Source of the DNA: a plasmid
Reading direction: 5' to 3' (one strand)
Length of the DNA: 64,000 nucleotides
Sequence record: NZ_CP014527.1
Part shown: positions 45,585-64,000 of the stretch, one piece after another
Layout of the letters: the number at the start of each line of letters is the position of its first letter
Position numbering within the stretch: the first letter of the stretch is position 1
Made by a program: the position numbers and the translations under genes
Notes under the pieces: generated by a model
Seen by the model: the letters and a program-made list of their open reading frames with translations, nothing else
Told to the model about the DNA's origin: nothing
The model's database searches: none

Positions 45585-48500
45585 TCACCCAGGCATTGTC
45601 GGACAGACGTCAAGGACCGGGCTGGCCAGTTCCTGCAGGCCCGCCCCGACCGCACCGGCTAGGCACGACCCGCTGGTTGCCGCCCCGATGCCGCAGCCGG
45701 CAGCCGCGTGCACCAGAACCTTGCGCACGTCGCCGTCGCTGATCCCGAATTCAACCCCCAGATCCCCGATGCCCTGGAACACCTGCGCCGACACAACGTT
45801 GACCGCACCGGTCACCAGCGCCGAACGGGCCGCAGTGTCCAGACCTTCTCCGTTGACAGCCATATCCACAACGGCCAGCACACCGGTGTTGATCGCGGCC
45901 TGCGCCACTGTCTGCCCCAGTCCGGCCAGATGCCCTGCCGCACTGGCAACGCCTGCCCCGGCTGCGGTAGCACCGGTGGTTGCCGCTGTGGCTCCGGCTG
46001 CGGCCGTGGTGGTGGTTGCAGCCGTCGCCCCGGCTGTTGTTGTCGCGGCGGTGGCCCCGGTACTGGCTGTTGACCCGGCTTCGGTGCCGGCTCTGGTTAT
46101 GCCGCCGTCAAACCCCAGGCCATCACTGACCCCCTGGGTCAGGCCGGCCGTCAGGGCACTGACCACCAGGGACCGCAGGGTGTTGCTGGAAACAATGGAA
46201 CGCAGCGCACCCTGCATGTCACCGGACACCGCGCCGTTGGCAACAGAGGTCGAGACAGTCCCCGCAACACCGGCCAGGACGGCGTTTGTCATGGTCATGG
46301 CTGTCAGCTGGGCCGCTGTTCCGGCATAGGTGGCACCGGCCATCGACATGGTGGCCATGCCAGCCGACACCGACGTGCCGGCTGGCACTTCGGCAACACC
46401 GACGATATTGGCAGCCAGGCTGGCCGTGGCCCCGGCAGTCAGAACAGCGGTGGCAAGGGCAATCAGGGCCATGGTCCCGCCACCTATGCCGCTTTTCTGG
46501 TCATGCCAGCTGCGGTAGGTCTCTTCCACGCCCTTCCAGTCAACCCCCGGCAGGGTCCGGAGCGTTGCCAGATAACCAAGGCCGGGGGCCTGTGAAAGCT
46601 GGTCAAGGTCGGTCGCCAGGTCGCCGGTCGCACGGTATTCGACCACGATACCGCCCGGGCTTTCGATCACAAAGTCACCGCCGGACTCCAGAAGGGCGTG
46701 CCGGACCACCTCCCGTTCGTGGCCACGTTCTGTCATCGTCCACTTCAGGCCACCGTCCCGGTGTTCCGAAACCGACAGGACATCGCGTTCCGTGTCCGAG
46801 AGAAGGTGCAGCCTGGCATCCGGGGCCGCAAAGCGACCCTTCCCGACCCGCAGGGTCAGGGTGCCACCGGCGGAAACACGACTGGCGCGGATGGTGGTGT
46901 CGGATCCGGACTCCGTCGTCAGATCCGCAACAGAGCTGACATCAGAGCCTTTTATGCCGGTAAAGGCATGCTGCTCCGTACGGAAGCCACGTCCCCCCAG
47001 GAAGCCCCCAAAGGCACCGGATTTCTTGACCCGGTACGCGTGCACATACTGCTCGTGCAGTGATGTGACACGCAGTTCGCCCAGGGCGGTAATGTCGATA
47101 TTGCCGCCGCTCTGGATCCGGGACCCGGCAATCTCCATGTCACCGCCGGCATCCAGCGATACGGCGCGTCCCCCCGAAAGGACGCTGCTTTCATAGGTCA
47201 GCCGGCTCTCGTTGACATGCTCGGTCTTCTTCTTCCTGAAAAGACCCCGGCCTTTCGAGGTTGAACTGGACGCATAGCGCGAGGCCTGCGCACCCGCTGC
47301 CACAGACAGGGCATTGCCGGCGACCACATCCAGCCTGCCGTCGGCCGAAACCCGCGAGGCCTCGATGCCGATATCCGTACCCGACAGGCGGACATCGCCA
47401 CCGGACAAAACCGATGATCCCTGAAGGCGCTCAGCATACGCACTCCGCGTGCTTCTGCCGCTGCTTCCCGCATCGCTGGACACATCCCGCGTTGCACCGA
47501 CAACAAGACCACGACCGGCTTTCAGCGTCGCATTACCGGCAGCCTCAACCTTCGACCCCAGAACGGAAACCGCGCCATCCGCTTCAGCCGTCAGGGTACC
47601 GCCCGTGGAAATGGATGATCCCCGGGAGCGTTGGGAATGCGCGCTGTGTGTGCTTCGGCCGATGGTCCCAGCATAGGTGTGCTCATCGCGCGTAGCACCG
47701 ACAACAAGATCACCGCCGGCCTTCAGCGCCGTATTGCCGGCAGCCTCAACTTTCGAGCCCAGAACGGAAACCGTACCACCGGCCTCAACCGTCAGGGTGC
47801 CGCCCACATCAACCGTACTGCCACGATGGGTAACCGCTGTTCCGGATCCCCCGCCAATCTTTGTCCGGACGGTCCTGTATGCGTCACAGTCGCTCCTGCC
47901 TGCGGCACAGTCCGGGTTGCCTACACGCCGCTCGGCATAGGAGGCCCGGGTAAAACGGGTTTCTTCCTTCAGGCCTTCGATCGCGACATGACCGGCCTGG
48001 CTTTTGACGGCAAGATTGCCATCGGCTTTGACCCTGGTGCCAGCAAGGCGGACGGTGTCATGGCCGGATACAGACATGTCCCCGCCGGCGGCAAGCTCGC
48101 CACGTTCCAGATCAATGGTTCTTGCCGCAAGGGTTGCATCGCCCGTGCTTTTGATCTGCCCGCCCCCGCGCTGCCTGATGTCACCGGCGGTGATGGTTGT
48201 GGTGTTCCCGGCCACCAGCGCACCATTCCGGCGGTTCAGGAAGGCCATGGCCGCAGAAAGCGGAACGGTTCCATTTTCCAGTACCGGCGGGGATGCCAGG
48301 GCCTGCACAAGGTTCTCGCTGAGGAAGCGGTCTGCACCGGCCGCAATGTCTTGCGCGGGGCCAACGTTGTCGGCTCCCGCCCCGCCCGGCCATGCCGTAC
48401 GATCCAGCGACAGGATTTCAGACAGGCCCGGTTCGTGCTGTGCGGCCATGGGGCCGTAATTGAGGCGATCAAGAAGATACGCCGATGACAGGAAGGCTTT

Positions 48501-51062
48501 CTGGTCACCGGGTTTCTCGGCGGGAAGATCGCTTTTGGCAATTTGCAGGATTTCCTCCAGCTCCGTCCTCAGGGTGAGCAATGTGGAGGTCTCTGCCCCC
48601 GGAGTGCTGGGGACACGGTACTCCTGACCGGGGCTGGCCCGTCTCGGCCTGGGTGTTGTCGCGGCCTGTCGATCGTGAAGCTCGTCGACATGACCTTTAT
48701 CGCCCGTCTGGCTGTTGATCTCTGCCAGCATCTCTGCGGCGCTGCGGCTGCCGATCGTCAGGTTGTTGACCTGTTCCGCCTCGATATCCAGTATGCCACC
48801 GGCCTCAATCACCCCCCCGAAGGTATTGACGAAATCAAGGGTGCCTTGGTGACAGCTGTAGCAGGCGCGTTTGTGAACCTCGTGACGGGTACGGCTGGCC
48901 CCGAACGCAATATTGGTTACGGTCCGGGCCGAGATCTTCAGGTCCTGCCCGGCCCGGATTTCTCCGTAAACATTGCGGATACTGTCGGCATCCAGCGACA
49001 GGCCGCCGCCGGAACGGATCGTGGCCAGCACACCATCATCGTTGAGGGCATCCTCGGTGATCGTCACCAGGATATCGTAGCCCGCTCCTGAACCGGCACG
49101 GATTGCTTGCCACAGCGCACTGACTTCGGGCAGGATGGTCCCGTCCTTGATGTATTTCGGGTCAATCGCGGACAGGGTTGTGTCGTCCAGCGCCTGTCCG
49201 CTGGCAAGTTTCTCCCAGAGGGCAATATACCGCGTCCTGTAGGCGTCCTTGACAGGGAACGGGTCGACTTGCTCCACAACCGGTTCATCAACAGCGCTGT
49301 CGTCTGCGGTACTGTCATCTGCAGCAACGACCGGTACAACGCGCGCCTCCTCAACCAGCAGGTCGCGCATGAAATCAACGAGAGAGGGGACTCCGGCCTC
49401 GAAAGCCTTTCCGCTCAGGTTCTGGAAGTAGGCCACCCAGGCCGCTTTCGACCTGTCGGGATTGTCCTTGTCAAGGGCAGACGTGCGAAGCAGGCTGATA
49501 ATACGGGGGTCCAGAGGCGTATCCCCTGAGACCGTGCCGGAAAAGAAAGTCTCCAGAAGGAGCAGGTAGTCGTCACGCTTTCCAGGGTCAACGGAACCAT
49601 CCGGCGCGAGGATATCCGCTGACACCAGGCGATTGCGAATATCCTCGCCCGGATTTACGGGGTCAGACTTTTCTATTGACTTTCTGACCGTGTCCTTGAT
49701 CCTGACGGTCGGGGCCGTTCCCTCGTTGACAATGGACTTGGCCTTGACATGTAAACGGCCGCTACTGGCCTCTATCGTGCCGTTCCTGTTCACGACAGAT
49801 TCGGACCGTCCCTCCTCTCCTTTCGCATAGCCGATATCGAGCGTGTTTTTGCCAATGATCTTTCCGCCATCGTTGAGAACAAACGGCGCGTCGATGACAC
49901 TGTCCCCGTCAGAGAGCACCGTGCCCCTGTTCTCGACCCGCCGCCCGGCGGCCAGGGTTGTCTTCTGCCCGGACTTGATCGTCCCGCTGTTCTTGATGGT
50001 ATCAATAGCCCCGATCGAAACCGATGTGCCCGCATCGATGGTGCCTGTGTTGTCAACCGTATGAGCCGCGACAGAAATGCTGCCTGAACTTTTTATGGTA
50101 CCGGCGTTCTCGAACCGGGCTGTTGTTGTGATGGTGGTGTCCGTGCCGGCGGACAGGCTGGACCCGGATCCAAGGCGGATATACCCCTTTGCATCAAGCG
50201 TCAGGCTGGAAGCCGAGGCCATCGCGCCGTTCATGTTGACGCCGGCCCCGTCCTCGGTGGCAACAAGGGAAATCTGCCTGGCATACATTCCGCCCAGGGC
50301 GGCAACATCGAGGGCGATGTCCGGGGCCGGGGTATCAACGGTTATCGGGTCGGCCGCGAGGCTGTTGGCATCAACCCTGTTCGTCCCCATGACAACGTTC
50401 AGCGTGAGGCCCTTGACCTTGGCTTTTTCACGCAGGGCAATGGTGCGGGCAACAAGATCGATCTGACCGATGGATTGATCTTCCTTGGTGGCATCAAAAC
50501 CCGTTCCGTCGAACAGGATATCGCCGCCGCGGACATCAAAACGCTCCAGCTCACCCTGCTCATTGAAAATGGCCGCCCCGGTCGAGAGAGTTGCCCGGCT
50601 GGTATTGATGAAGCCACAGCTGTTACAGGTGATGCCATCCTCGTTGATCACAACGACGCGGGCTGTCGGTCCGACCACTTCCAGCAGACCGTCCATCTGC
50701 GAGCGGGTACCGCCGATGACCTGATGGATGATCAGCTCGGCCTCATGCCCGGGGGTCAGGTTGGGATTGCCCTCGATAAATCCCGCTTCAAGCTTTGAGT
50801 AGGCGGCAATGGCCGAATTGTTGTCGATGGCTCCGCGCGACGGGACATCGAACGTATGGTGCAGATTGTTTGATACGCCACTGCTGTTGGGCGTGTTGAT
50901 GTTGAAGAGCGGGATCCCGCTCCTTGACTGGTCGTCAAAGGCACGTTCCGTGTTCGTGACCGGCTGGGCGTGGACCAGAACAGGAGAGAGCGGGTAAAAC
51001 AGGGCCGCAAGCAAGGCGGATGCTTTCTGGAGCCAACGAAAGGCGCGTGTCAGTGTGTGCAT
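45585..51062 (-). CDS. Two-partner-secretion exoprotein (TpsA; filamentous haemagglutinin / CdiA-like). The C-terminus is frameshifted and truncated.
   Basis: N-terminal extended signal peptide and TPS domain with an NPNL motif (FIEGNPNLTPGHEAELIIHQVIGG), followed by long beta-helical FHA repeats including near-identical tandem ~200-bp DNA repeats around 47.4-47.9 kb. The ORF ends at 45585, but a haemagglutinin-like sequence continues in another frame (45588..~45250) before running into the IS5 remnant. Confidence 0.85.
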   Translation of the reverse strand: MHTLTRAFRWLQKASALLAALFYPLSPVLVHAQPVTNTERAFDDQSRSGIPLFNINTPNSSGVSNNLHHTFDVPSRGAIDNNSAIAAYSKLEAGFIEGNPNLTPGHEAELIIHQVIGGTRSQMDGLLEVVGPTARVVVINEDGITCNSCGFINTSRATLSTGAAIFNEQGELERFDVRGGDILFDGTGFDATKEDQSIGQIDLVARTIALREKAKVKGLTLNVVMGTNRVDANSLAADPITVDTPAPDIALDVAALGGMYARQISLVATEDGAGVNMNGAMASASSLTLDAKGYIRLGSGSSLSAGTDTTITTTARFENAGTIKSSGSISVAAHTVDNTGTIDAGTSVSIGAIDTIKNSGTIKSGQKTTLAAGRRVENRGTVLSDGDSVIDAPFVLNDGGKIIGKNTLDIGYAKGEEGRSESVVNRNGTIEASSGRLHVKAKSIVNEGTAPTVRIKDTVRKSIEKSDPVNPGEDIRNRLVSADILAPDGSVDPGKRDDYLLLLETFFSGTVSGDTPLDPRIISLLRTSALDKDNPDRSKAAWVAYFQNLSGKAFEAGVPSLVDFMRDLLVEEARVVPVVAADDSTADDSAVDEPVVEQVDPFPVKDAYRTRYIALWEKLASGQALDDTTLSAIDPKYIKDGTILPEVSALWQAIRAGSGAGYDILVTITEDALNDDGVLATIRSGGGLSLDADSIRNVYGEIRAGQDLKISARTVTNIAFGASRTRHEVHKRACYSCHQGTLDFVNTFGGVIEAGGILDIEAEQVNNLTIGSRSAAEMLAEINSQTGDKGHVDELHDRQAATTPRPRRASPGQEYRVPSTPGAETSTLLTLRTELEEILQIAKSDLPAEKPGDQKAFLSSAYLLDRLNYGPMAAQHEPGLSEILSLDRTAWPGGAGADNVGPAQDIAAGADRFLSENLVQALASPPVLENGTVPLSAAMAFLNRRNGALVAGNTTTITAGDIRQRGGGQIKSTGDATLAARTIDLERGELAAGGDMSVSGHDTVRLAGTRVKADGNLAVKSQAGHVAIEGLKEETRFTRASYAERRVGNPDCAAGRSDCDAYRTVRTKIGGGSGTAVTHRGSTVDVGGTLTVEAGGTVSVLGSKVEAAGNTALKAGGDLVVGATRDEHTYAGTIGRSTHSAHSQRSRGSSISTGGTLTAEADGAVSVLGSKVEAAGNATLKAGRGLVVGATRDVSSDAGSSGRSTRSAYAERLQGSSVLSGGDVRLSGTDIGIEASRVSADGRLDVVAGNALSVAAGAQASRYASSSTSKGRGLFRKKKTEHVNESRLTYESSVLSGGRAVSLDAGGDMEIAGSRIQSGGNIDITALGELRVTSLHEQYVHAYRVKKSGAFGGFLGGRGFRTEQHAFTGIKGSDVSSVADLTTESGSDTTIRASRVSAGGTLTLRVGKGRFAAPDARLHLLSDTERDVLSVSEHRDGGLKWTMTERGHEREVVRHALLESGGDFVIESPGGIVVEYRATGDLATDLDQLSQAPGLGYLATLRTLPGVDWKGVEETYRSWHDQKSGIGGGTMALIALATAVLTAGATASLAANIVGVAEVPAGTSVSAGMATMSMAGATYAGTAAQLTAMTMTNAVLAGVAGTVSTSVANGAVSGDMQGALRSIVSSNTLRSLVVSALTAGLTQGVSDGLGFDGGITRAGTEAGSTASTGATAATTTAGATAATTTTAAAGATAATTGATAAGAGVASAAGHLAGLGQTVAQAAINTGVLAVVDMAVNGEGLDTAARSALVTGAVNVVSAQVFQGIGDLGVEFGISDGDVRKVLVHAAAGCGIGAATSGSCLAGAVGAGLQELASPVLDVCPTMPG

Positions 51063-51084
51063 GGCTTCCCCCGGGCTCCTGTTC

Positions 51085-52770
51085 CTAGAACGACAGCGCC
51101 ATCTGCACGTACTTCACCGTGCCAGGATCGGTAAAAGAGGCCGGGCGCTCAAGGGCCCGTGCAACGCTCAGGTCAAGATGAAGCCGACTGAAAAGAGACA
51201 GCCGGACGCCTGCCGAAGCCCCGACCAGAACCGATTGCCCATAGGTCCGGTGATCATCGGCGCTCAGGGTGACAGAGCCACCGTCCAGCCCGAGAACGAA
51301 CGCAACCTGTGTATCAGGGTCCTAGTGCAGCCGGATCGCCAGATCATTGCGGGTCGAGAGACCTTTGCTTCCTGACAAGCTGTTTTCCTGGAACCCGCGT
51401 ATGCCGAAAGAGCCCCCGCCCGGGGAAAACCGGTCGGAACTCGACAGGGCACTGCGTGAGTACTGGCCCCGGATCTGATGATCCAGACGCAAGAGACCAT
51501 CCATGAACCGGGCATACACCGCCGAAGTGCCCGTAACCAGGAACGGCTCCGGATCAAGCGCGGGGTTCAGGGGTCTTCGTGCCCCCAGGGCCTCCATGCC
51601 CCGGATCGCATTGACGGACCAGCTGTGGTAGCCCCCTGCAAAATGGGTCCGTCCGTTCAGGCCAGCCTTCGCCTTGGTCGCAAAACGACGCTGGACAAGG
51701 ACCTCATGGTCACCCAGATAATTCCTTGAACGGGACAGGCCGACCCCGGCAACCGCATAGACCTTGGCTGCCTGACCACGCTACAGAAGGCGCTGCAGGT
51801 CTGCCGACAGCCTGTGATTATACCCATGCAGGGGGAAGCGCTGGTTGATGCCCGGAAGCGTGAACCTGTACGTGTTGTACCCGGCTCCGATGTGCAGGCC
51901 CCAGTTCCCGAAAGGGATCAGATAACGGCCGTGTACATCCCGGGCGTAGGTCTTGCCCCCTGAAAGTCCCCTTGTCGTCGATGATACGCCAAGCCGGAGC
52001 GTGTCGTTGCGATTGAGGAGATTGTCGTAATGGACGTCTGCCCCGGTCTTGTAGCGACCGGTATTCCGGTAGCCAAGATTGTCCAGGGACAGGCGTCCCC
52101 CGAGCGGGAACCTGTTTTGCGGGGATATCCGGACAATGGAGGTCCCGTGGCGGGTTCCGGGGTACAGCTTGAAGGTGCCGGACTGTGTCGGCGGAGCGTT
52201 GAAGTTCTCAAGGGCCTGTTCGATATCACGCAGGTTGACAATATCCCCCTGTCCTGACGGAAAGGCAGAATGGATACGGGAATCAGCCGCCTGCCCCCCT
52301 TCATAGTCGAAGTCCTCGATCCGTCCGGAAATCACAAGAACACGAAGCGTACCACCGGAGAGATCCTGCTCGGGCAGATAGACCCGGGTCGTGATCCACC
52401 CCCTGCCGGCATAGAATGCGTTCATGCTGTCCAGATAGCGGCTCAGATCACCCTGTCGTACGCACGTGCCGTTCAACCTGTCGACATCAGGGGGAACCAG
52501 GTCCAGGTCTTCGGCCCCTTCAACCCTGGTTGTGGATACCGGAAAACAGGGACCCGGATCCTCTTCCCGGTCATCCGGTCCGTCCCCGGGACGTTCCAGA
52601 TGAATATCAGGCCGTTTGTCCGGCTCGGCGTTGAAGTCCCAGTCCCTTTGCTGCCGGCGCAACTGCTCCTGCTCGATGGATTTCACAACATCCTCGGGCG
52701 TGACCTGCGCAACCCCCGGACAGGCTGCAAGGAAAAGGGATGCAAGCACACACAGGACAAACCGGTTCAT
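51085..52770 (-). pseudogene. TpsB (ShlB/FhaC/CdiB-family) outer-membrane transporter whose frame is conserved throughout but interrupted by two in-frame TAG codons
   Basis: Signal peptide MNRFVLCVLASLFLAAC, POTRA and barrel regions, and a C-terminal ...YVQMALSF ending in the canonical terminal Phe. In-frame amber codons lie at 51781-51783 and 51322-51324. The ORF track shows this gene as separate pieces (51781..52866 and 51322..51597). Confidence 0.75.
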
Positions 52771-54487
52771 GAACACACAAGGCCCCCCTCCGGGACCAGT
52801 CAGGGACTGGCCGAAAGCCGTAATGAATGACGGAAGGGATCCTGTGATTTTCGCACGACCAAGCACGTCGGCCCCTGCCTGAGGCCGGGGACAGCGATAT
52901 TGTGTGTGCGATCACACACCACACGATGCAGACCGATAAAAACCGATCTGCCCAAAACAGTGTCTGCGAAGGAAATTCCTTGTGAAGACCGGCCCGTGGC
53001 CCCTTGCAGGGCTTGTAGCAGATCCCTCCCCCCCCACGATTTTGACGATGTCCCAAAGGACATCTTTTTTGATTGTGCAAACCCTATATCACTACCACAG
53101 GTAAATGAAAATGGTAAAATGAAAACAGGTCGGGATAAAAATAAGAGGTGGTGTGCCCTTGTCAGCACCCCTGACGGAATACCGTTGCGCATGCCTGTTC
53201 TCCCACGAGGAATGTGGGTGGCGCACTATGTGCCACAGGGATCGAGCATGGCAGGGCCGCCTCCCTGACCGGGGGAGCATCAAGGGCGGGCATGCATAAA
53301 GCAGCGTCCGGACTATTTTCCCGGGCAGGACGTGCCAAAAGAAAAGCACTCTTCCCCCGCCGCGCTTGCGGCTTAAAGATGGCTTTTTTTCTGCAGTACA
53401 GAGGATGCCCCTATGCCAACAGTTGCCTTGCTTTCCACGCATCGTGGGGGCCTGTCCAATCTCTGCATTTTTCTGCCGTTCCCTGCATGCCCGGACGACT
53501 GCCATTCAACGCCCACGAAAGGCCTTTGGATCTTGCTGAATGTGTGGGCACAACAGACAGGGGAGCGTTGTCCGCAAGGCACCCTGTAAAAACACCCGGG
53601 TTTCTCACGCTTGCGTTGAGCACGGCCCGGCCGTGCGAACAAGCATCCTCATCGAATGAGAACAGGAGGTGGGCCCACCTCCTCTATCCTGCCGGTGGGT
53701 ACGACGGAGAAACTTTGAGATTCTTTGAGACAGGGGCATAGATACTTGCCAATTTCATTTGCACCTCTGTTCGTAGTTATACATAGTGGTCTGAGTAACA
53801 ATAAAACAGAAAACCTACATAATAATTTTGGCGATCAACGCCAGAGACGCAATTCCTCGATCGTTTTTCTGTGGCAATTTAAGTGATGCTTCATCAGGCG
53901 GATGTCGTGGTCGTAATCCTGCTCCGTACGAAACGCGTAATCCGGATCAATATTGCGGCAACGCTACTGTGAAAGGCTGTACGATCAACTCAGAGCGCTT
54001 GGCCTAGTTGTCAATGTCGTCGTACTCTGAAACACGATCTACAATGGATGTGGGCCTGGAACAGCTCATAGTAGAGGTCTACGATGCTCGACCTGAATAA
54101 GTTGCATGCCTGTCGCCGCTTGGCTCAAAACACGTCAATATGTTCGGCTGATGCACCTTCTCTCTGCCGGAATTCGTGGCTTGACGCGAACTTAGGTCGT
54201 TACGCGATCCTCAGAAAACTGCCCCTGACGAGCCCTGAAATCCTTAAGTAGTTTTTCTGTTCCGTTGCTACTCAAATCCCTATTTCTGGCGAATTATTGT
54301 GGCCCTGCTGTTTCCGTCCGTTTTACGTTATCTGTATGTGTTATATAAGGTTAAACCGTTATAGATTCTATTTAGCTAATTCTATCAGTCAGTTAAATGG
54401 ATAATTGTGCGTGATCTACCGAGTCTTATTGCACGCAATATACCGATATACAGGTCGTGTTATCCACAGGCTTGGCCTTGCTTTTTA

Positions 54488-55176
54488 TCATTCGTCAATC
54501 TCACTCGGCGGGGGTAAAAGCTCCATGGTTTTATGAGTGAATACGGCCAAGATGCGATCATTCCGCCCCCAACGCCACGCGTTGGTCCCGAGATCTTCAT
54601 TCATGCGTTGTTGCTCAGGGTCTGACTTGTCGAATGCCAGACCAACCCGATATTGTGGCAGACTATCAGCTTCCGAGATTTTCTTCAGATAAACTTTGAA
54701 ATTACGGAGCTCCATTTCTGAGCCACACCTTTCCGCCAGGCGCGGCAGAGAAATCTTCCATATCGGCTGACGGCCACAATGCTTGCGTGCCAGCTCGTAA
54801 AGCCGCCTTTCCAAGCCCATCTTGAGCCTGAAATACCCGCGATCAATGGTGAGAACACGCCTGTTCTCGACAATTGCACGAAACATCCATTTGTTCAGGG
54901 TCAATTCAACGGCGGCCATTACCCTCTGTCCACGCGAATTGATGCGCTCGACAATCCTGTAGCTGTCGATCCACGAGAATCCCTGGCATTCACGCTCCTC
55001 ATTCTGTCCAGAGGTAATGGTGGTGCGAATAGTGGTGCTCTGCAGCCGGTCCAGTGCAGACATGAAGAGTTCGTAAGCTTGTTTGCCTGTTCCGCGTCCG
55101 GTAAGCCTGAGAAAGTCATAGACCGGAAATTGAATGGTGCGGTTTACAGAGGCGCCACGTTCAAGGCGGCTGTTCC
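54488..55176 (-). pseudogene. Plasmid replication initiator RepA (RPA family), missing its N-terminus and ending exactly at the first CRISPR repeat
   Basis: ...NRTIQFPVYDFLRLTGRGTGKQAYELFMSALDRLQSTTIRTTI...FSWIDSYRIV...LTIDRGYFRLKMGLERRLYELARKHCGRQPIWKISL matches the RPA consensus block by block. The reading frame stays open upstream of the track start at 55063 and runs into repeat 1 at 55177 with no start codon. About 60-100 N-terminal codons of the family are absent. Confidence 0.75.
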
Positions 55177-55605
55177 GTTGCTGCTTGACCGCAATTTCTG
55201 AGATGCTAGTCTTCTATGCCGGTGAGCATGTCCTGGACCGTGTTGCTGCTTGACCGCAATTTCTGAGATGCTAGTCTAGAACAAGGTTGAAGCCGCCTAC
55301 CGGCGCGTTGCTGCTTGACCGCAATTTCTGAGATGCTAGTCTTCGGGCCACGACAGGAGGGTTGGGATGATGGTTGCTGCTTGACCGCAATTTCTGAGAT
55401 GCTAGTCTGCCTGCCACACATAGGCGATACCTGCGAGCGTTGCTGCTTGACCGCAATTTCTGAGATGCTAGTCTAACGCTGAAAATAGACCCGGCTGTGG
55501 TTCTGTTGCTGCTTGACCGCAATTTCTGAGATGCTAGTCTGTATTCAGGAAATAGCCAGCGTTATTGGCGTTGCTGCTTGACCGCAATTTCTGAGATGCT
55601 AGTCT
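55177..55605 (+). CRISPR. CRISPR array with 7 identical 36-nt repeats (GTTGCTGCTTGACCGCAATTTCTGAGATGCTAGTCT) and 6 spacers of 29-30 nt
   Basis: Repeats are at 55177, 55242, 55307, 55373, 55439, 55505 and 55570. Spacers are tctatgccggtgagcatgtcctggaccgt, agaacaaggttgaagccgcctaccggcgc, tcgggccacgacaggagggttgggatgatg, gcctgccacacataggcgatacctgcgagc, aacgctgaaaatagacccggctgtggttct and gtattcaggaaatagccagcgttattggc. The strand is assigned from complementarity to the tracrRNA. Confidence 0.95.
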
Positions 55606-55679
55606 TGATCAGCGCTTTGCGCCTTGATTCCACTTGATAATATCGCGATGTAGCGGTGTATTTTTTGCACACATCGCTC

Positions 55680-56024
55680 CTATAGCAACACCAGTTGCGA
55701 CGGATTTTCGCGGGCCCTCCGCCGGTCTTGGTTCGAAAAGTGAACGATGTTGCGGAACTGACGGTCCGTAAGAGCCAAAATCTGGACGTCACCCTTGTCG
55801 GGCAAGGCCTGTTTAATGCGACGAATGCGGGCCTCAAGAGCCTCCTTCCCATTCACAAAACGACCATAAGCCGAAAACTGGCTGCGTTCAAAGCCTTCAT
55901 CAAGGAGAAAATTCCGGAAGTCCGTAGCAGCCTTGGCCTGGGCCCTGGTCCCGACCGGCAGGTCGAACATGACCAGCACCCACATCAGACGATATCCGCT
56001 GAGATGATACGTGGTTCCATTCAT
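55680..56024 (-). CDS. cas2: Cas2 (type II)
   Basis: 114 aa. LSGYRLMWVLVMFDLP...FRNFLLDEGFERSQFSAYGRF...RIKQALPDKGDVQILALTDRQF is typical of type II Cas2. The ATG overlaps the cas1 stop. Confidence 0.85.
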   Translation of the reverse strand: MNGTTYHLSGYRLMWVLVMFDLPVGTRAQAKAATDFRNFLLDEGFERSQFSAYGRFVNGKEALEARIRRIKQALPDKGDVQILALTDRQFRNIVHFSNQDRRRARENPSQLVLL

Positions 56025-56932
56025 GATCCCAAGGCACGAAAGGTATCGATCGAAGGGAGACCGGGCAAGGCAAGCGCAAGACGACGCGTTTCGAAGCTGC
56101 GTGCAAGCGAGGAGGCCAGACGCCCAAGTACTGTGGCCAGGGGTGTCGTTTCATCCGCCAACGGCAGGTCAAGGGCAATAAGCCGGGCCAAGGCTGCCTT
56201 GGCGGACGGTGTGACGTCTGTGCCTTCCCGTCTGACGATCTCCCGGACAGTCATGTCAACAAACGGACGGAAGGGTTCCATCAGGTCATCGGCCAAGGCA
56301 AAAGCATTGCCGCGATTGGCATGAAAGATACCGATAGCAGGGTGCAGACCAGCACCGGCAACAGCCCGTGCGGTGGCGGCACGCAGAACAGTATAGCCGT
56401 AATTGAGAAGCGCGTTGATGCCACCGCCATCGGTATTCCGGCGGAAATCCGGCCCCATCATCAGTGGCCAGTAAAAGCGGGCGGCCTGTGCCTCAATGTT
56501 GCCTGTGTCACCGGACCGGACACGACGCGCCATCATGCGAAGGGGAGCTGAGGACTGTCCAATGGCTTCGAGCGATGCAGCCTGTATACCGATCTTGGCA
56601 ATGACGATGGCCTTCCAGGCCCCCTTCACCAGAGGTACGGGCGCAGACCATTGGGCACGAATGCGCGCACCCTGTTGGTGGTGCCCCTCCATCGGCCACA
56701 GAAGGCCCGTTGGGCGATGATTTGACCCGCAGATGACAACAGGTGTGCCCTGTTCCGCGAGCGCAGCCAGCAGCGCGTTGGACCAGGTTATCCCGTGGGC
56801 ATGGGCCAAAACTGCGGCGACTTGATCGAGAGGCACGCGGGCGATCCGCTTTCCTCCCTCGCTTACGGTCAGAAATCCACGGTCACGGGCCAGATGGCGA
56901 CCATCCTGTGTGAGGTCAATGATCTGATCCAT
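56021..56932 (-). CDS. cas1: Cas1 (type II)
   Basis: 303 aa Cas1 integrase. It lies 59 nt downstream of the cas9 stop. Confidence 0.9.
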   Translation of the reverse strand: MDQIIDLTQDGRHLARDRGFLTVSEGGKRIARVPLDQVAAVLAHAHGITWSNALLAALAEQGTPVVICGSNHRPTGLLWPMEGHHQQGARIRAQWSAPVPLVKGAWKAIVIAKIGIQAASLEAIGQSSAPLRMMARRVRSGDTGNIEAQAARFYWPLMMGPDFRRNTDGGGINALLNYGYTVLRAATARAVAGAGLHPAIGIFHANRGNAFALADDLMEPFRPFVDMTVREIVRREGTDVTPSAKAALARLIALDLPLADETTPLATVLGRLASSLARSFETRRLALALPGLPSIDTFRALGS

Positions 56933-56991
56933 GGCTGGTTCCCCTCTCCCCCGCCGAATGGATTCAGCCTACAGAACCCGCCAGAACCCCG

Positions 56992-59900
56992 TTACCCTTT
57001 TCTGCCAGGATCACGGAAATGACCTGTTTCATCCACAATAATGCGACGGGCACCCGCCTCGATCAGGGTGCGGGCAGTGAAACGCAGATAAAGGTCTTCT
57101 TTATATTTCTCACAGCGCTTCCTTGCATTGGATGCCGTGTGCGGCACCAAGGAAATCTTACCGTTACGGTCGAACATCACAACGGTAGCAATAACCGGAC
57201 CAAACTTGCTGTCATCCAGCTTTACCATGTCGGACTTGAACAAACGCAAAAGCCGCTTGGCCGCCGGATGTGGGCGTGGCTCAGGGCCAGGTTGGTGGGC
57301 ATCGAAGGTGCTGACAATATGTTCGGTGATGGCTCCTCCGGGTAACCTCCAGACCTCAAAGCAATGGTTGGAATTGCCTTTATAGCCTTTGTAAGCCCGA
57401 CCGGATGCATCCCGTATTTCGACTACGCTGATCGGCTCGATCAACCGGACGCGGCGGATCCCGTGGTAAGGGCCAGGCCTGTCGCGGAAGTGTGCCAGCG
57501 CTTCGGCAAACGCATCATCCTTCTTGCCGGCGGTCACGGCCGCAAGGGCTGCCTTCAACGGTTCGTCCCTGATCTTGCCGATCATGGTGGGGGTCAGGTT
57601 GTCGAAGGGCTCGCGGGTAACCACAAGCGGAACACCCTTCTCGGATTGCCCGGTCAGGCCATAGGCCGTGTCGCGGTGCAAGGGGCCGGTTGTCTGGTCG
57701 CGCCCTTTCATGCGGGTCGTGAGGTCGATCCGGCCATGATCGGGGCGGTGGCTGACAATGATACGGTCGACTTGTGCCGCAACCGCTTCACGGAACCCGG
57801 GCCACGGGGGCATGATGGATGAGGCCAGTGCCTCACGGCCCTGATCGACATCTGTACGCGCCTGCTCGGCCATCGCCTTGATCAGGCCACGGTCTGTTGC
57901 CGCCACCACAGCCGCATCAATGGCGTGGTGACGGTGGTCCATCCGGTTCTTCTCTTTTGTGACATCACGCAGCGGGTCCGTAAGAATCCCGTTCAGACCC
58001 CAGTGCCGGCGCAGCATCTCTGTCAGCCGCCCTGGAACGACCCAGACATGGCTCTTGCCATCTGCACCGTCATAGAGCGTTTCAAGATAGGCCTTGGATA
58101 TTCGCGAAAGGTACTGGGTATCCACCAGCGCCCGCGCCTCGAAATCCCGCTCGCCCTCAAACCGTGCCATCGCATCTTCGGCAAAGCGCCAGCGCTTGAA
58201 TTCAGGAATATGGCGCAGATTGTCGTCTTCAAGCGCCCAGATCCGCATCCCGTCCCGCCGGGCTTCTGATGGCGATTTGTTGCGCTTCTGGCGATTGGCT
58301 TCCTTCATGCACAGGGTGCGGTTGGCCGTGCTGTCGTCAAGTGTACGGGAATAGGGCAGGATGTGATCGATGTCGATCGCGCCCGAGAAGAGCAAAGAGG
58401 GTGAAATGATGGTCCCGGTATAAGGGCAACGCCGCATCATCGGATCTTCGTGGAGTTCCTGCCAAAGACGAACATACATGCGGTTCGCACCCGTATCCGG
58501 AACACCCCATTCGGTCAGGAGAGCAGACCGTGCTTCGGCGGCCTTTCTGTTCTTGAGATTCAGGGCTATGGCCGCCTTTTTCTGGCCGGTGCTTTGCTTC
58601 AGGTCGCGAGCCAGTTCGACCACGATCTCTGCTGGTTTACCATAGCGGGCGATGATCCTGTTCACCAGGCGGCGCAGCTGGTTCAGCCCGATGTGAACCG
58701 TCGGGTTGGTGATCCGTCCAAAACGTGTGATATCGTCATGATGCGGCTCACCGGTCCCCGGGATAACATGAGCCTGCAGCACTTCACCATAATAGGGAAG
58801 TGATTCCAGAATCTCGCCCGTCCGGCGGTCGGAGTGGTGTTGATCGAGCGCCTTCCCCACCGCCTCGCTATAGGTCAGGACCTCGGCTTTCAAGCAGTCC
58901 AACAGCTTCCGCGTTGCTGTCTCGCCAAGGCGACCATAGCCTTCGGGCAGGGGGGCATCAGCCGTTGCGCGTGCATGCGCATCGTCCAGGCCGTGGACCT
59001 GCTTCAGCCACTCAACCAGAGCCATGGTATCATCATCATCACGAATACGCCCGACGATTTCGGCCTGCACCTCAGCCTCAAGCACCGACCAGCGCGGGCC
59101 GAAGCGGTCGGGGTGCGACAGGCTCGCCCGGACCGGATCGCAGGCGATGTAATCGCGCCCCTTCTCCAAGGTAAAGGTCTGCCCGTCACGCAACTTGAGA
59201 TGTTTTGCGATAGCCTTCAGCGACAGTTTCGCGGAGGCTATGGCCTTGACCGGTGCCTTGCCGTCCAGAAGCATGATGACTTTATCACGCTGCTCCTTGC
59301 CGAGGGGAACAGCGGCCCCGCTTTCGGTCCTGATCCGCAGCGCATTGACTGTTTCATAAAGAACACGCCGCTGTGTCAGCGGATGAGCCCTTGGCAGGCG
59401 CGGTTCCGGGAAGAACAGACACCGTCCCACCGCTGGTGCTTTCAGGGGACGCTGAAAGAAGATTGTCTCAAACACTTCATGGCGCAGGCTATCTGTCAGC
59501 ACCGGGTGATGTGCGGCCTGCGCAGCCCAGACCTTGTTGAACTCTTCCTCCAGGTGTCGCCGGTCCGGGTAGAAGTCATACCCCGTTTCTGCTTTTCCAC
59601 CGTCAACGGACCGCAAGGTAAGCCGCGTGCGAACAGACGGCACACGGCGCAGATCTTCGGCTTGGCTGCGACGCAGGTGCAGGAATTCGCCATAGGTCCG
59701 CGCTCCGACGGCCATCATCGCCTGATCCAGCCGTGCAGAACCATCGATGATCTTGCCGCCCTCGTTGTTGCCACGGTCCGTTTGGCGGTTCGACTTGAAG
59801 CCCCGCCGTTGGTTAAGATGGAACAACGCCCGCCCGAGTTCGGTAAGTTCCAATCGGCGATCCAGGGCATCGGCCCGCAGACGATAGGGATCCAGTAACT

Positions 59901-60177
59901 CCAACGGCTTCGCCTGACTTGGGTCTTCCGGCATCAAACCGGCCGCCGCAAGGCGCCTCATCAACGCTGCACGACGGCGCAAATATCGGTCACGCCGTCG
60001 CCGCAACGCGCGCGCATTGCGACGCTCCACGGCTGACGAAACGCCTGTCTTCGCGTCCCGGCCATCCGAGAAAAGTCTCACGCCACAATCTATAATCTCG
60101 GCAATCATGCCGTTGGTTATGCGATAGAGAAACCAGCCGATGGATGTGGAACCGATGTCGAGCCCAAGACGAAGCAT
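56992..60177 (-). CDS. cas9: Cas9, compact type II-C (about 1061 aa), with all catalytic motifs intact
   Basis: RuvC-I MLRLGLDIGSTSIGW, RuvC-II EIVVELARDL, HNH DIDHILPYSRTLDDSTANRTLCMKEANRQKRNKSP, and RuvC-III RHHAIDAAVVAATD. The true ATG is at 60177. The track ORF to 60354 carries a spurious 59-aa N-terminal extension. There is no csn2 or cas4, so this is subtype II-C. Confidence 0.95.
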   Translation of the reverse strand: MLRLGLDIGSTSIGWFLYRITNGMIAEIIDCGVRLFSDGRDAKTGVSSAVERRNARALRRRRDRYLRRRAALMRRLAAAGLMPEDPSQAKPLELLDPYRLRADALDRRLELTELGRALFHLNQRRGFKSNRQTDRGNNEGGKIIDGSARLDQAMMAVGARTYGEFLHLRRSQAEDLRRVPSVRTRLTLRSVDGGKAETGYDFYPDRRHLEEEFNKVWAAQAAHHPVLTDSLRHEVFETIFFQRPLKAPAVGRCLFFPEPRLPRAHPLTQRRVLYETVNALRIRTESGAAVPLGKEQRDKVIMLLDGKAPVKAIASAKLSLKAIAKHLKLRDGQTFTLEKGRDYIACDPVRASLSHPDRFGPRWSVLEAEVQAEIVGRIRDDDDTMALVEWLKQVHGLDDAHARATADAPLPEGYGRLGETATRKLLDCLKAEVLTYSEAVGKALDQHHSDRRTGEILESLPYYGEVLQAHVIPGTGEPHHDDITRFGRITNPTVHIGLNQLRRLVNRIIARYGKPAEIVVELARDLKQSTGQKKAAIALNLKNRKAAEARSALLTEWGVPDTGANRMYVRLWQELHEDPMMRRCPYTGTIISPSLLFSGAIDIDHILPYSRTLDDSTANRTLCMKEANRQKRNKSPSEARRDGMRIWALEDDNLRHIPEFKRWRFAEDAMARFEGERDFEARALVDTQYLSRISKAYLETLYDGADGKSHVWVVPGRLTEMLRRHWGLNGILTDPLRDVTKEKNRMDHRHHAIDAAVVAATDRGLIKAMAEQARTDVDQGREALASSIMPPWPGFREAVAAQVDRIIVSHRPDHGRIDLTTRMKGRDQTTGPLHRDTAYGLTGQSEKGVPLVVTREPFDNLTPTMIGKIRDEPLKAALAAVTAGKKDDAFAEALAHFRDRPGPYHGIRRVRLIEPISVVEIRDASGRAYKGYKGNSNHCFEVWRLPGGAITEHIVSTFDAHQPGPEPRPHPAAKRLLRLFKSDMVKLDDSKFGPVIATVVMFDRNGKISLVPHTASNARKRCEKYKEDLYLRFTARTLIEAGARRIIVDETGHFRDPGRKG

Positions 60178-60367
60178 GTTACGAACCCAAATAAAAAAGA
60201 TGGGGGAATAATTGTTCGACCCTTGATTTATGTCAACACACAACGCCATCCAAGGTAGTGATTCAAAGTGGCAAACATCGAGCGTCCCAAATTCGATCGG
60301 ACAGACGGGAGCATTTTCCTGGAAAAGGTGACTGATTGCACCTTGACAACTCACGGCAAATAAATGA

Positions 60368-60462
60368 GAGTTCGGCTCTCAGAAATTGCGGTCGAGCCGT
60401 TAACAAGCTCGACAGAGCACCACATAGAAACCCGGGGCTACGGCCCCGGGTTTCCTTTTTGT
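60368..60462 (+). ncRNA. tracrRNA, encoded divergently just upstream of cas9
   Basis: The anti-repeat GGCTCTCAGAAATTGCGGTCGAGCCG at about 60374-60400 is complementary to the repeat (17 contiguous matches, about 24/27 overall). It is followed by a small stem (GAGC..GCTC) and a strong terminator (CCCGGGGCTACGGCCCCGGG then TTTCCTTTTT at 60431-60460). Confidence 0.7.
60431..60460 (+). terminator. Rho-independent terminator of the tracrRNA
   Basis: A GC-rich perfect 8-bp stem with a 4-nt loop, then a T-run. Confidence 0.7.
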
Positions 60463-60658
60463 CGTACCCGATCATGAACCTAGATGCATTCCGTATCTTT
60501 ATTGGCCATGGCGGCTCGCAAAAAAAGTCTTCAGCCGATCCTGCCACCCCCAAGCTGCATGGCCCTGATCTTGCCCTGCCCCCTAGGGCACTCCCCCGAA
60601 TGCTGCGGGCATAAACAGAAACACTCAATTAATGAAAACATATTAAACGTATATACGA

Positions 60659-60877
60659 CTATCCGTATTTCTGCAAAAGTAAGTCACGCAACTCATCTGA
60701 AATCTTGCTGCCACGCATGGCACATTGGGCCTTGATGGCACGGTGCAAACTTGCAGGGATATCAATTGTCAACCTCTTCATCGGTTCCTCTGCATCCCGA
60801 CTGTCCACCCATGCATCCGCAGAAACAGGAGCTGACTTGGTTGTCGGCCTGGTCCCGATTGAAACTTTCTTGCTCAT
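60659..60877 (-). CDS. ParG-like ribbon-helix-helix partition protein
   Basis: 72 aa. The C-terminal KRLTIDIPASLHRAIKAQCAMRGSKISDELRDLL is an RHH fold. It sits directly downstream of the parA-like gene. Confidence 0.6.
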   Translation of the reverse strand: MSKKVSIGTRPTTKSAPVSADAWVDSRDAEEPMKRLTIDIPASLHRAIKAQCAMRGSKISDELRDLLLQKYG

Positions 60878-60925
60878 ACTTTCCCTCTCCGTAATTACAA
60901 AAACCGCTCATAGGCAGAACACAAT

Positions 60926-61498
60926 TCATTCATCAACTTCGTGAACAGAAAGTCCGCGAGCTGCGGCTTCAGCAAAAATAACACGCTGGGTAAGAGACGA
61001 TTCAAAAACAGGAACATCTGGATAAGCTGCCAGCGCCTCACGCACATCGCACCCGATTGCCGTATTTGATATTTTGCGATTTATAACAAATGCGTATTTA
61101 AGGTTTTCTTTAAAAACAATCGCTTCGCCAATAAGCTTGACGACCTCATCTGATGCCCATATGTCGTAAGGCGATGGCTGTGTAGGGATCAGAACAACAT
61201 CGGCGGCCATAACGGCAGATCGGGCTAAATCAGTGACACGGGGTGGCCCGTCAATCACAACGTGATCATAGCCATAGCCAATCTGGCCTATCTCTTTATG
61301 CAATGTTGGACGTGGAAGACCCGCAACTGAAAGCAACGGTGCCGCTTCACGAGCCGCCGCTCAATCAAGGCTGCTGCCTTGCGGATCTGCATCAATCAAC
61401 AAGACACGCCCACCACGACGCGCCAGACTTGCCGCAACATTGACACTGAGTGTTGTTTTCCCAACACCACCCTTCTGATTCAGAAACCCGACAATCAT
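60926..61498 (-). pseudogene. ParA/ParF-family partition ATPase with an in-frame TGA replacing a conserved Trp
   Basis: [45 protein letters not shown] then a TGA at 61361-61363, then AAAREAAPLLSVAGLPRPTLHKEIGQ...VIDGPP in the same frame. The family has Trp at this position (DPQGS..W). Confidence 0.7.
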
Positions 61499-61803: not shown

Positions 61804-64000
61804 GTGACAGACTTCACCAACACCCCGGGCCAGAAAGACACCTTTGTCGGGACCGATAACTGGGACAGCGTGTCTTATTCAAACACCGACAAGCCGGTGC
61901 AGGTAACGCTGCGGGCTGCGGAGTATGTGGACCAAGCCCGCGAAACCGCCCTAATAAAACACCTTGTTTTTAATCATGATAGTTATGGACCTCCCCCTGA
62001 CTTTTCGAACCTGAAGCCTTACATGGTGCGGGTTGCGAGGGATGTCACGGTCTATGTGGGTGGTGTGGCCGAGGACACCCTGCGCGACATCGAGAGTGTG
62101 ACCGGCGGGTCCGGGCACGACACCCTGGACGGCGGTGACGGGAACGACACCCTGGACGGCGGTGCCGGGAACGACACACTGAAGGGCAGTGCCGGGAACG
62201 ACCGACTGTACGGCGGTGCCGGGAACGACAGCCTGACCGGCGGTACCGGGAATGACACCCTGGACGGCGGTGCCGGTGATGATGTGGCCGATTACGGTGA
62301 CAAGAGCGCCCCGGTGAAGGTGACGCTGCGCGGTGCGGAGGATGCCACGGTCTATGTAAACGGCGTGGCCGAGGACACCCTGCGCAACATCGAGAATGTG
62401 GACGGCGGTTACGGGAATGACGAACTGACCGGCGATGCTAACGACAACCGCCTTGACGGGGGTGCGGGTGACGACACCCTGTCTGGCGGTGCCGGGAACG
62501 ATATCCTGTCCGGTGGTGACGGTGTGGACTGCCTGTCCGGTGATGACGGCGAGGACACGCTGAAGGGCGGTGCCGGGGATGACCTGCTGCACGGGTACGC
62601 CGGGGCTGACACCCTGCTGGGCGAGGACGGTGACGACCGGCTGTATGGCGGTGCTGGCACGGATACTCTGGACGGCGGAACCGGCGATGACACCATCAAG
62701 GGCGGGGACGGCAACGATACCCTGCGCGGGGGTGAAGGTAATGACACGCTGAAAGGTGATGCCGGCGATGACACCCTGACCGGCGGCGCGGGCGCGGACC
62801 GGTTTGTATTTGCCTCTGCGGCGGAGACGGTGGGCGATGTGATCACCGACTTCAAGGCCGGGGAAGACCGGATCGACCTGTCCGGCGCCGGGGATTTAGT
62901 GTTCAGCGAAGACGGTGCCCACGAACGGGCGCTGTGGACGGTTGTTGAGGGGGAAAACCTGCGTCTTCTGGGCGACACCGACGGCCATGTGGACAGCGCG
63001 GACATCAACATGCTGCTGCAGGGCGTAACGTCTGTGGGGGCCGATGCGTTCGGCTTCCAGGCGGCGCTGCGGTCCGGGGTTCTGGACAGCGGGAACCAGA
63101 CCGGTCCGGTGACGCTGGACCTGTCCAGCCATCCGGCAATCCAGAAAGCCCGTGGTGGTGCGGGCGATGACCGGATCACCGGCAATGCCCGCGACAACCA
63201 TCTGCAGGGCGGAACCGGCGCCGATGTTCTGGTCGGCGGAGCTGGATCCGATGTTCTGGACGGCGGGGCTGGCGCGGACACCCTGACCGGCGGATCGGGC
63301 GCGGACCGGTTTGTGTTTGCCTCTGCGGCGGAAACGGTGGGCGACGTGATCACCGATTTCGAGGCTGGGGAAGACCGGATCGACCTGTCCGGTGCCGGGG
63401 ATTTGGTGTTCAGCGAGGACGGCCCGCGGGCCGGTGCGCTGTGGACGGTTGCAGAAGGTGAAAACCTGCGCCTGCGCGGGGATACCGACGGTGATGCCAC
63501 AACAGCCGAGGTGGACATCCTGTTGTCACAGGCCAGTCACCTGGGTGCCGCTGATGTCGGAGCCACGGTTGTGGCCCGGGGAACCACCTTGGATGCGACC
63601 TCGGCGACCGCAGCCGTGACCCTGGATCTGGCCGCTTTTGCCGGGACCGATACCGCCATCGGCGGTGCCGGAGACGACACCATCCTTGGAACAGAAGGCG
63701 ACGATACCCTGAGTGGCGGTGCGGGCGATGATACCCTGACAGGTGATGAGGGTCATGATGTCCTGACCGGTGGTGCAGGCCATGACGAACTGACCGGCGG
63801 GGACGGCGATGACACCCTGACCGGCGGTGCAGACGGCGACCGACTGACCGGTGGAGCCGGGGCGGACCGGTTTGTGTACACCACGGCGGCAGAAACCCGG
63901 GGCGATGTGATTACCGACTTTACGGTGGGTGAGGACCGGATCGACCTGTCGGCTGTCGGGGATTTTGTGTTCAGCGTTGAAGGGCCCCGGGCCCGTTCAC
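61804..64000 (+). CDS. RTX-type calcium-binding repeat protein (haemolysin-type GGxGxD nonapeptide repeats). It is partial and continues past the right edge.
   Basis: Dozens of [11 protein letters not shown]/GGxGxDxL repeats and three near-identical blocks ([41 protein letters not shown]). The frame is open from 61549. The start is assigned to the GTG at 61804, preceded by AGGGAGAA, and is uncertain. The gene is absent from the ORF track because it has no stop within the window. Confidence 0.8.

Follow-up and report, generated by a model that had tools for sequence, protein, structure and literature searches.

How a complete CRISPR-Cas system (short palindromic repeats, clustered and regularly interspaced, with their associated genes) comes to lie between the replication and partition genes of a plasmid, and why the replication gene stops at the edge of a repeat, are the questions raised by positions 54488-61498 of a 64,000-nucleotide stretch of sequence record NZ_CP014527.1 (the whole stretch is here called the window). 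An intact type II-C system flanked on one side by parG and parA and on the other by a repA gene had been proposed for this region in the original prediction, and all of these parts were found, the system having parA and a parG-like gene at one flank and the remnant of an RPA-family repA at the other. Our reading is that 54.3-61.75 kb (about 7.5 kb) is very probably the remnant of a small par/rep plasmid that carried the type II-C system as cargo, became fixed in the chromosome of the blood pathogen Haematospirillum jordaniae and is now decaying. The Cas9 of the window is 100% identical to the NCBI Cas9 of H. jordaniae. From high to low coordinates on the minus strand, the order is parA, parG-like gene, cas9, cas1, cas2, leader, array and repA remnant. 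The features are listed below; contigs used for comparison carry L numbers.

54405..54445, minus strand: two degenerate iteron-like 17-mers, related to CGGTATATCGCGTGCGG, downstream of repA
54488..55175, minus strand: repA remnant (RPA family); PF10134 profile positions 62-228 of 228; without codons 1-76, start codon and promoter/operator
55176: junction base, outside both the repeat and the repA homology in the alignment to intact alleles; same base in L002, L003, L004 and L006
55177..55605, plus strand: CRISPR array of seven repeats and six spacers; strand taken from anti-repeat and terminator
55606..55679: leader of 74 bp on the acquisition side, the interval between array and cas2; new spacers adjoin this side
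55640-55659, plus strand: terminator-like hairpin inside the leader
55680..56024, minus strand: cas2; PF09827, TIGR01573
56021..56932, minus strand: cas1 (type II, NMENI class); PF01867, TIGR03639 at 227 bits (cut-off 120)
56992..60177, minus strand: cas9, 1061 amino acids (aa), start at MLRLGLDIGSTSIGW; HNH_4, RuvC_III, TIGR01865 at 505 bits
60208..60236, minus strand: putative promoter upstream of cas9, TTGACA-17-AATTAT; agrees with the consensus at 10 of 12 positions, a resemblance only
60377..60464, plus strand: predicted trans-activating CRISPR RNA (tracrRNA); anti-repeat 60377-60397, internal hairpin, terminator hairpin 60427-60454, T-run
60659..60877, minus strand: parG-like ribbon-helix-helix gene, 72 aa; sub-threshold Pfam ParD match
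60926..61498, minus strand: parA pseudogene; TGA at W46 (61361-61363), 79-bp 3' deletion near 60932

The 17-mer copy at 54429-54445 was found by the search tool, and the second downstream copy was read by eye.

Truncation of repA and disruption of parA

The reading frame of repA (...KQQ|R|NSRLERGASVNRTIQFPVYDFLRL...) continues straight from the repeat without a start codon, just as had been proposed. The remnant matches PF10134 with E = 6e-53, but only over profile positions 62-228 of 228, and its alignment to the intact 304-aa orthologue starts at residue 77 of the latter; a full-length RPA domain with its start codon is thus missing in the window, while the sister orthologues cover positions 1-227. 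The loss of the N-terminus had been doubted in case full-length members of about 230 aa existed in the family. None was present among the best 120 homologues of full-length RepA, which measure 282-414 aa save for a single protein of 211 aa from a broken gene. In sister lineages the near-identical orthologues have 304-305 aa and cover the whole Pfam profile, and the best plasmid homologue, from plasmid II of Magnetospirillum sp. XM-1, has 371 aa with the match starting at its residue 78. Given a family length of 282-414 aa, the truncation is real. The frame had been described as recognisable up to 55176; the near-exact abutment stands, but 55175 is the last base with DNA homology to repA, and 55176 is part of neither repeat nor gene.

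The orthologous loci of sister species were found with Cas9 as query. In H1815 (L007) both the gene order and the site are the same; its Cas9 is 98% identical to that of the window, and it has an intact 215-aa parA, parG, cas9, cas1 and cas2, and a full-length RepA (PF10134 positions 1-227 of 228). Its array comprises nine repeats, the last two of them degenerate, and is followed by a trailer of 175 bp. A metagenome contig resembling H4485 (L012) likewise has a terminal repeat, a 165-bp trailer and an intact RepA of 304 aa. Since H1815 possesses array, trailer and full-length repA together, the earlier statement on replacement of the repA 5' end by the array is correct in the sense of a deletion. 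The stretch missing from the window amounts to 392 bp by comparison with L012 and 405 bp by comparison with L007, and consists of the array trailer, two 17-mers CGGTATATCGCGTGCGG and repA codons 1-76, about the first quarter of the gene. These putative upstream iteron or operator 17-mers are present in L007, L008 and L012 and deleted in the window. The missing 5' end was not found elsewhere in the window, where tblastn with the 76 N-terminal residues and blastn with the 392 bases gave no significant match. In the intact loci the 17-mers flank repA on both sides (L007 7265-7334 and 8311-8351; L012 170-264 and 1240-1302), and they probably serve as origin (iteron) or operator sites.

The remnant carries seven synonymous and three non-synonymous changes specific to the window, too few to decide on relaxed selection; all three replacements fall at residues that are invariant in the other homologues.

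The parA gene keeps the Walker A box KGGVGKT but is no longer an intact open reading frame (ORF). The in-frame TGA reported earlier does replace W46, and a second lesion has to be added to it, a 79-bp 3' deletion that removes the last 25 residues. The gene would have been inactivated separately from repA, by a nonsense codon and a deletion. Its intact counterpart in H1815 is a ParA of 215 aa matching NF041546 (small type Ib) with 271 bits against a cut-off of 180. The parG-like ORF of 72 aa lies directly downstream of this small ParA; its only family match, to Pfam ParD, scores 21 bits against a cut-off of 27 (E = 3.4e-4), no NCBIfam match was obtained for the protein, and the gene is conserved in both sister species with a ratio of non-synonymous to synonymous substitution rates (dN/dS) of 0.04-0.18.

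Disrupted copies of repA and parA, which we read as pseudogenes, occur in every H. jordaniae contig examined. The lesions of the other lineages are different ones: repA of H4485 has a broken C-terminus, and in the L014 lineage the gene is split into 211 + 91 aa and has a different upstream flank. Decay of the backbone is thus independent in H. jordaniae, H4485 and L014, with H1815 still intact. The split repA of this last, Haematospirillum-like lineage is seen in Logan metagenome contigs (L014 1-403 and L016 1-489), with an unrelated upstream flank and no CRISPR repeat; downstream of it are a 3' fragment of tpsA, azlCD and pstB-phoU-phoB. This lineage may have lost the CRISPR module at this site, or may never have had it.

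The locus is also mosaic. The cas9-cas1 part of the window is 97-100% identical to H1815, while the 3' end of cas2 and repA are 96-99% identical to H4485/L012 and only 88-94% to H1815, with the recombination breakpoint near cas2 and the array. A repA remnant from a foreign plasmid, suggested by a synonymous distance (dS) to H1815 of 0.35 against 0.05 for cas9, was rejected because the remnant is 96-99% identical to the H4485/L012 allele; recombination within the genus is the explanation instead.

Probable plasmid origin and chromosomal location

The original prediction proposed that the CRISPR-Cas system was acquired on a plasmid that later integrated and decayed, and the comparison bears this out. 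The plasmid backbone would have comprised parA, the parG-like gene, an RPA-family repA and iteron-like repeats, with a complete type II-C CRISPR-Cas as its cargo. We regard it as a replicon backbone because ParA matches the partition equivalog NF041546, the relatives of RepA are plasmid initiators (its best matches being of this kind) and 17-mers flank repA. Acquisition on a plasmid, followed by integration and decay, is further supported by the intact par/rep backbone at the same chromosomal site in H1815, by the different and independent lesions in three lineages, by the linkage to uvrB and by the surroundings of the closest Cas9 outside the genus (L009, 80% identical), which adjoins genes for a resolvase, BrnTA, ParA and an RPA protein. 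Other Cas9 relatives sit in islands with transposases and integrases, and more distant ones (53% identical) are found on plasmids of Pseudosulfitobacter. Integration would have come before H. jordaniae separated from its sisters H1815 and H4485. With replication of the element taken over by the chromosome, the backbone would then be dispensable, and it is decaying in each lineage in its own way.

The cas module itself was probably inserted as cargo into the plasmid before the plasmid reached Haematospirillum. This view is based on the difference in G+C content, which is 50-52% in the backbone and 59-61% in cas9/cas1, and on the nearest Cas9 relatives beyond the 80% group, which belong to Rhodobacterales.

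For the location of the element, we used conspecific contigs that extend past the left end of the window, where a TonB-dependent receptor gene is followed by uvrB about 5 kb out; the left flank is common to the window and H1815. In the related lineage, the split repA pseudogene lies about 7.5 kb from pstB-phoU-phoB. These linkages point to the chromosome. No direct or inverted repeats longer than 10 nt were found bounding the 7.5-kb element.

It is quite unlikely that the segment still resides on an extrachromosomal replicon, such as a megaplasmid or chromid, driven by another initiator (the decay of par and rep would be real in this case as well). Such a replicon would suit the content of the window, which is made up of accessory islands (nonribosomal peptide synthetase/polyketide synthase, P2-like tail, two-partner secretion, RTX-type) and has no transfer RNA or core gene. 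However, uvrB, glutaminase and transport genes stand beyond the left end of the window in conspecific contigs of 57-108 kb, and the pstB-phoU-phoB linkage speaks against it as well. In addition, megablast of 53.5-62 kb and 30-54 kb against PLSDB (72,556 records, including the H. jordaniae plasmid CP014526) gave no near match. Fixation in the chromosome is therefore the reading that we keep.

The type II-C module and its activity

The array is built of seven identical 36-nt repeats (GTTGCTGCTTGACCGCAATTTCTGAGATGCTAGTCT on the plus strand) and spacers of 29-30 nt. According to profile matches and the ORF list, cas9, cas1 and cas2 are present, and csn2 (type II-A) and cas4 (type II-B) are absent; the three cas genes are flanked in that list only by the parG-like gene and repA. 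Without csn2 and cas4, the gene content is that of type II-C. Cas9 is a predicted RuvC and HNH nuclease, with domain matches to HNH_4 (E = 4e-21) and RuvC_III (E = 3e-22) and the motifs DIGSTSIGW, DIDHILP and HHAIDA read by eye in the translation.

The anti-repeat at 60377-60397 pairs with 21 bases of the repeat, through 20 Watson-Crick pairs and one G-U pair, and on its 3' side come a G+C-rich hairpin of 12 bp and then a T-run (60427-60464). Anti-repeat and terminator hairpin together make a predicted tracrRNA, although an Rfam scan of 53.0-62.5 kb returned no tracrRNA or other RNA family and only one chance match to a long non-coding RNA. From the orientation of anti-repeat and terminator, tracrRNA and CRISPR RNAs (crRNAs) should be read on the plus strand, opposite to the cas genes.

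In systems of type II-C, the last transcribed repeat is where new spacers are taken up; every repeat has a promoter of its own, and the oldest or 'extra' repeat stands first in the array (PMC12080349). In the window the oldest repeat is the one at 55177-55212, and 55570-55605 is the repeat at the acquisition end. What had been called repeat 1 is thus correctly located at the edge of repA, but is the oldest, trailer-end repeat and not the growing end. The repeat ends in TGCTAGTCT, with a TG extension and a -10-like hexamer that agrees with the consensus in its first (T), second (A) and last (T) base, and the crRNAs are probably transcribed from a putative promoter inside each repeat; this -10-like motif (TG-n-TAGTCT, at the 3' end of the repeat) was not called by the consensus scan. 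By gene content, tracrRNA, strand arrangement and acquisition polarity we assign the module to type II-C.

The three complete arrays available, those of the window, L002 and L003, all differ from one another. Read from cas2 to repA, their spacers are as follows.

Window: a,g,h,i,j,k
L003: a,b,c,d,e,f,g,h,i,j,k
L002: new,b,g,j,k

The repA-proximal spacers are common to the three arrays and the cas2-proximal ones differ, and thus new spacers enter next to cas2; internal units appear to have been lost through recombination between repeats. The cas genes are under purifying selection, with dN/dS of 0.16-0.19 for cas9, 0.06-0.08 for cas1 and 0.07-0.15 for cas2. Together with the Pfam and NCBIfam matches, this agrees with the earlier statement that Cas9, Cas1 and Cas2 have stayed intact.

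Six spacers match CP014526.1, the 'plasmid unnamed 1' of H. jordaniae H5569 (L011). This record is a 33-kb circular P2-like phage-plasmid that carries portal, capsid, tail and toxin-antitoxin genes. The matching spacers come from H1815 and H4485 (1-4 mismatches) and more weakly from H. jordaniae (one spacer, six mismatches). G at +2 and A at +5 are common to all six protospacers, which gives an inferred protospacer-adjacent motif (PAM) of NGNNA for this Cas9, on the basis of these six protospacers only. Neither in the window nor in the loci fetched for comparison did any spacer have a self-match. No spacers are common to H. jordaniae and either of its sister species, and the sister species share none with each other. 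Considering spacer acquisition at the cas2 end, purifying selection and spacer matches to the phage-plasmid, the system appears to be live. A deletion on the repA side up to the last repeat is tolerated because that side, upstream in transcription and distal to acquisition, is needed for neither expression nor adaptation.

Since the deletion, the perfect consensus 'extra' repeat has been preceded by repA antisense (55147-55212). Any antisense transcription across the remnant would give an extraneous crRNA with a repA-derived guide. Such a guide should not cut intact repA, owing to a mismatch at the PAM-proximal base and the lack of a PAM in register.

The junction between repA and the array

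The junction ...GCAGCAAC|GGAACAGCCGCC is identical in L002, L003, L004 and L006, of which two are from NCBI and two are Logan assemblies of other read sets. An artefact at 55150-55200 had been named as a possible objection, and an identical junction in four independent assemblies, from strains with differing arrays, removes it. Intact alleles read ...CCTTGCT|GAACAGCC, and the window reads ...GCAGCAAC-G-GAACAGCC. At 55176 the intact alleles have T on the gene strand and the window has G. There is no microhomology at the junction; the 79-bp deletion of parA, by contrast, is flanked by a 3-nt ATG microhomology.

We propose that one deletion, of no less than 392-405 bp, took away the oldest part of the array, the trailer of 165-175 bp, the two upstream iteron/operator repeats and codons 1-76, and would have left a consensus repeat one base from repA codon 77. 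This event probably also took the array's original old end, as the terminal repeat is now a perfect consensus copy and degenerate repeats stand at the old end in H1815. As mechanism, illegitimate end-joining that added one filler base is the most likely, ranking above two models in which the CRISPR machinery takes part. From the 66-bp period of the array, we estimate that a deletion end placed at random would lie no more than one base from a repeat's right edge in about 5-10% of cases.

The first of these models is unlikely. In its widest form it supposes a minimal par/rep plasmid of ~8 kb with a type II-C CRISPR-Cas9 as sole cargo, in which the system's own spacer caused the deletion in H. 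jordaniae: a spacer derived from repA, of this or a related RPA plasmid, would have recombined with repA or guided its cutting. Through Cas9 cleavage or the 30-bp homology, single-strand annealing would have deleted the interval and left the repeat followed by repA, and the ancestral array would have held a spacer of repA antisense (...GCCACGTTCAAGGCGGCTGTTC). The junction adjoins a consensus repeat on its spacer side, and repA is oriented as a spacer would be; both agree with this. So does the intact antisense sequence past the breakpoint, ...GGCTGTTC|AGCAA, which fits a PAM of NGNNA or NGNRA in register, a fit that 6.7% (NGNNA) or 3.4% (NGNRA) of the positions of trailer and repA on that strand would give by chance. 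However, repA should then abut the repeat directly, and the extra base 55176 intervenes; in the register that includes this base, the PAM would be GCAAG and does not fit. The 24 known Haematospirillum spacers include none that matches repA or an RPA plasmid, and the PAM itself comes from six protospacers. If true, the junction would be a natural record of CRISPR self-targeting that ended in loss of a replication gene after chromosomal capture.

The second model is very unlikely. Cas1-Cas2 nicks the repeat-spacer boundary during integration, and an aborted integration would have broken the edge of the repeat that was then leader-proximal, followed by resection and joining, with a filler base, to a break in repA. 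The junction does lie at the spacer-side edge of a perfect consensus repeat, where the integrase makes its second attack. One extra base without microhomology, unlike the parA deletion, would suit such an origin, and the lack of spacers shared between H. jordaniae and its sisters would suit present spacers that all postdate the event. The sister species, however, share no spacers with each other either, and the spacer argument consequently does not discriminate. The model has no direct evidence in its favour, and it needs either an array once reduced to a single repeat or an ectopic integration.

Recombination with a repeat-like sequence in repA was rejected, since the terminal repeat is fully consensus and the resemblance of the 37 bases upstream of the breakpoint (24% identical in register, 11/21 at a 1-nt offset) is marginally significant at best in counts made by eye.

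The anatomy of the locus, the loss by comparison with intact orthologues, the unvarying junction, the polarity of spacer uptake, purifying selection on cas and the spacer targets with their PAM are direct observations, whereas plasmid origin, chromosomal location, promoters within the repeats and the way the deletion arose are inferred. With plain end-joining retained for the deletion, the account of a captured and decaying plasmid has several points against it. The precision of the junction at the repeat edge, with its chance of about 5-10%, is unexplained by a simple deletion mechanism. The changes in the repA remnant do not yet indicate a clear relaxation of selection. The promoter inside the repeat is a matter of consensus resemblance, with three of six positions of the -10 hexamer plus the TG. 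The chromosomal location is drawn from uvrB linkage in contigs of other strains rather than from a closed genome of this one. Finally, no free plasmid with this gene order was found in PLSDB or in one metagenome repeat scan, that of JGI contigs, in which the repeat had no match, and 'plasmid' is for this reason a term that derives from gene content.

Comparison with known systems

The module shares many properties with the type II-C systems of Neisseria meningitidis and Campylobacter jejuni: cas9, cas1 and cas2 only, a Cas9 of about 1060 aa, a tracrRNA beside cas9, an array downstream of cas2 on the opposite strand and a repeat starting with GTTG. The repeat of N. meningitidis ends in TGCTACAAT, with a TG-extended -10-like motif, compared with TGCTAGTCT in the window. 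Acquisition at the last transcribed repeat, with the oldest repeat as 'extra' repeat, is common to them as well (PMC12080349). The Cas9 of the window is, however, distant from the solved II-C structures (best PDB match E 6e-62; Nme1Cas9 6JDQ 1.5e-44). Its nearest sequence relatives are in Rhodobacterales at about 65% identity, and its inferred PAM is NGNNA. The extra repeat also differs, being a perfect consensus copy that abuts a gene remnant and not a degenerate repeat with an intergenic flank.

As in plasmid-borne CRISPR-Cas (Pinilla-Redondo et al. 2021, PMC9071438), a complete locus is carried as cargo beside rep and par genes. The element of the window differs in being chromosomally fixed with pseudogenes as its backbone, and the matched spacers target a P2-like phage-plasmid and not the backbones of other plasmids. 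Among the RPA-family (PF10134) plasmid replicons of Alphaproteobacteria, plasmid II of Magnetospirillum sp. XM-1 serves for comparison. Its RepA is 72% identical over the retained 228 aa, and related 17-mers lie upstream of its repA, as they do in the intact Haematospirillum loci; the window has lost this upstream pair. XM-1 has an AAA ATPase of 400 aa, and the intact ParA of Haematospirillum is small (215 aa, NF041546).

Other regions of the window

Positions 1-31000 contain a yersiniabactin-like siderophore island of nonribosomal peptide synthetase/polyketide synthase type, in which genes of 1884, 3766 and 1734 aa are accompanied by an Irp3-like reductase, a methyltransferase-thioesterase, an AraC regulator and two ABC exporters; AT skew is strong from one end of the cluster to the other. 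The G+C content dips to 41% at 31-32 kb. A P2/Mu-like tail cluster follows at 31700-44000 (GPD hub, tape measure, sheath, baseplate J). It showed no capsid genes, so that it may be a prophage remnant or a tailocin, and no CRISPR spacer matches it.

At 45585-52866 (compared with L002 14002-15546) there is a two-partner secretion system whose TpsA/CdiA-like exoprotein has 1825 aa, against 1947 aa in L002. In other strains the gene calls divide the TpsB (ShlB) transporter into two ORFs (361 + 138 aa), and it may be disrupted. The region 62000-64000 is repetitive coding sequence of 66% G+C, and conspecific contigs show HemolysinCabind/RTX repeats (at least 1155 aa) there; the long overlapping ORFs on both strands are due to these repeats.

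Significance

The earlier interpretation is supported, and the locus is a well-documented but ordinary case of plasmid-borne CRISPR-Cas captured by a chromosome; the current understanding of CRISPR or plasmid biology is unchanged by it. By-products of the comparison are an inferred PAM (NGNNA) for an uncharacterised Cas9 of 1061 aa and a phage-plasmid target in an emerging human pathogen, and the strain-specific arrays could serve for typing. A consequence of the II-C architecture is that the flank upstream in the sense of transcription can be lost as far as the last repeat with function retained. Three sister lineages and several strains together would form a natural series in which the cargo CRISPR-Cas9 is fixed and stays active while the rep and par genes around it decay in different ways.

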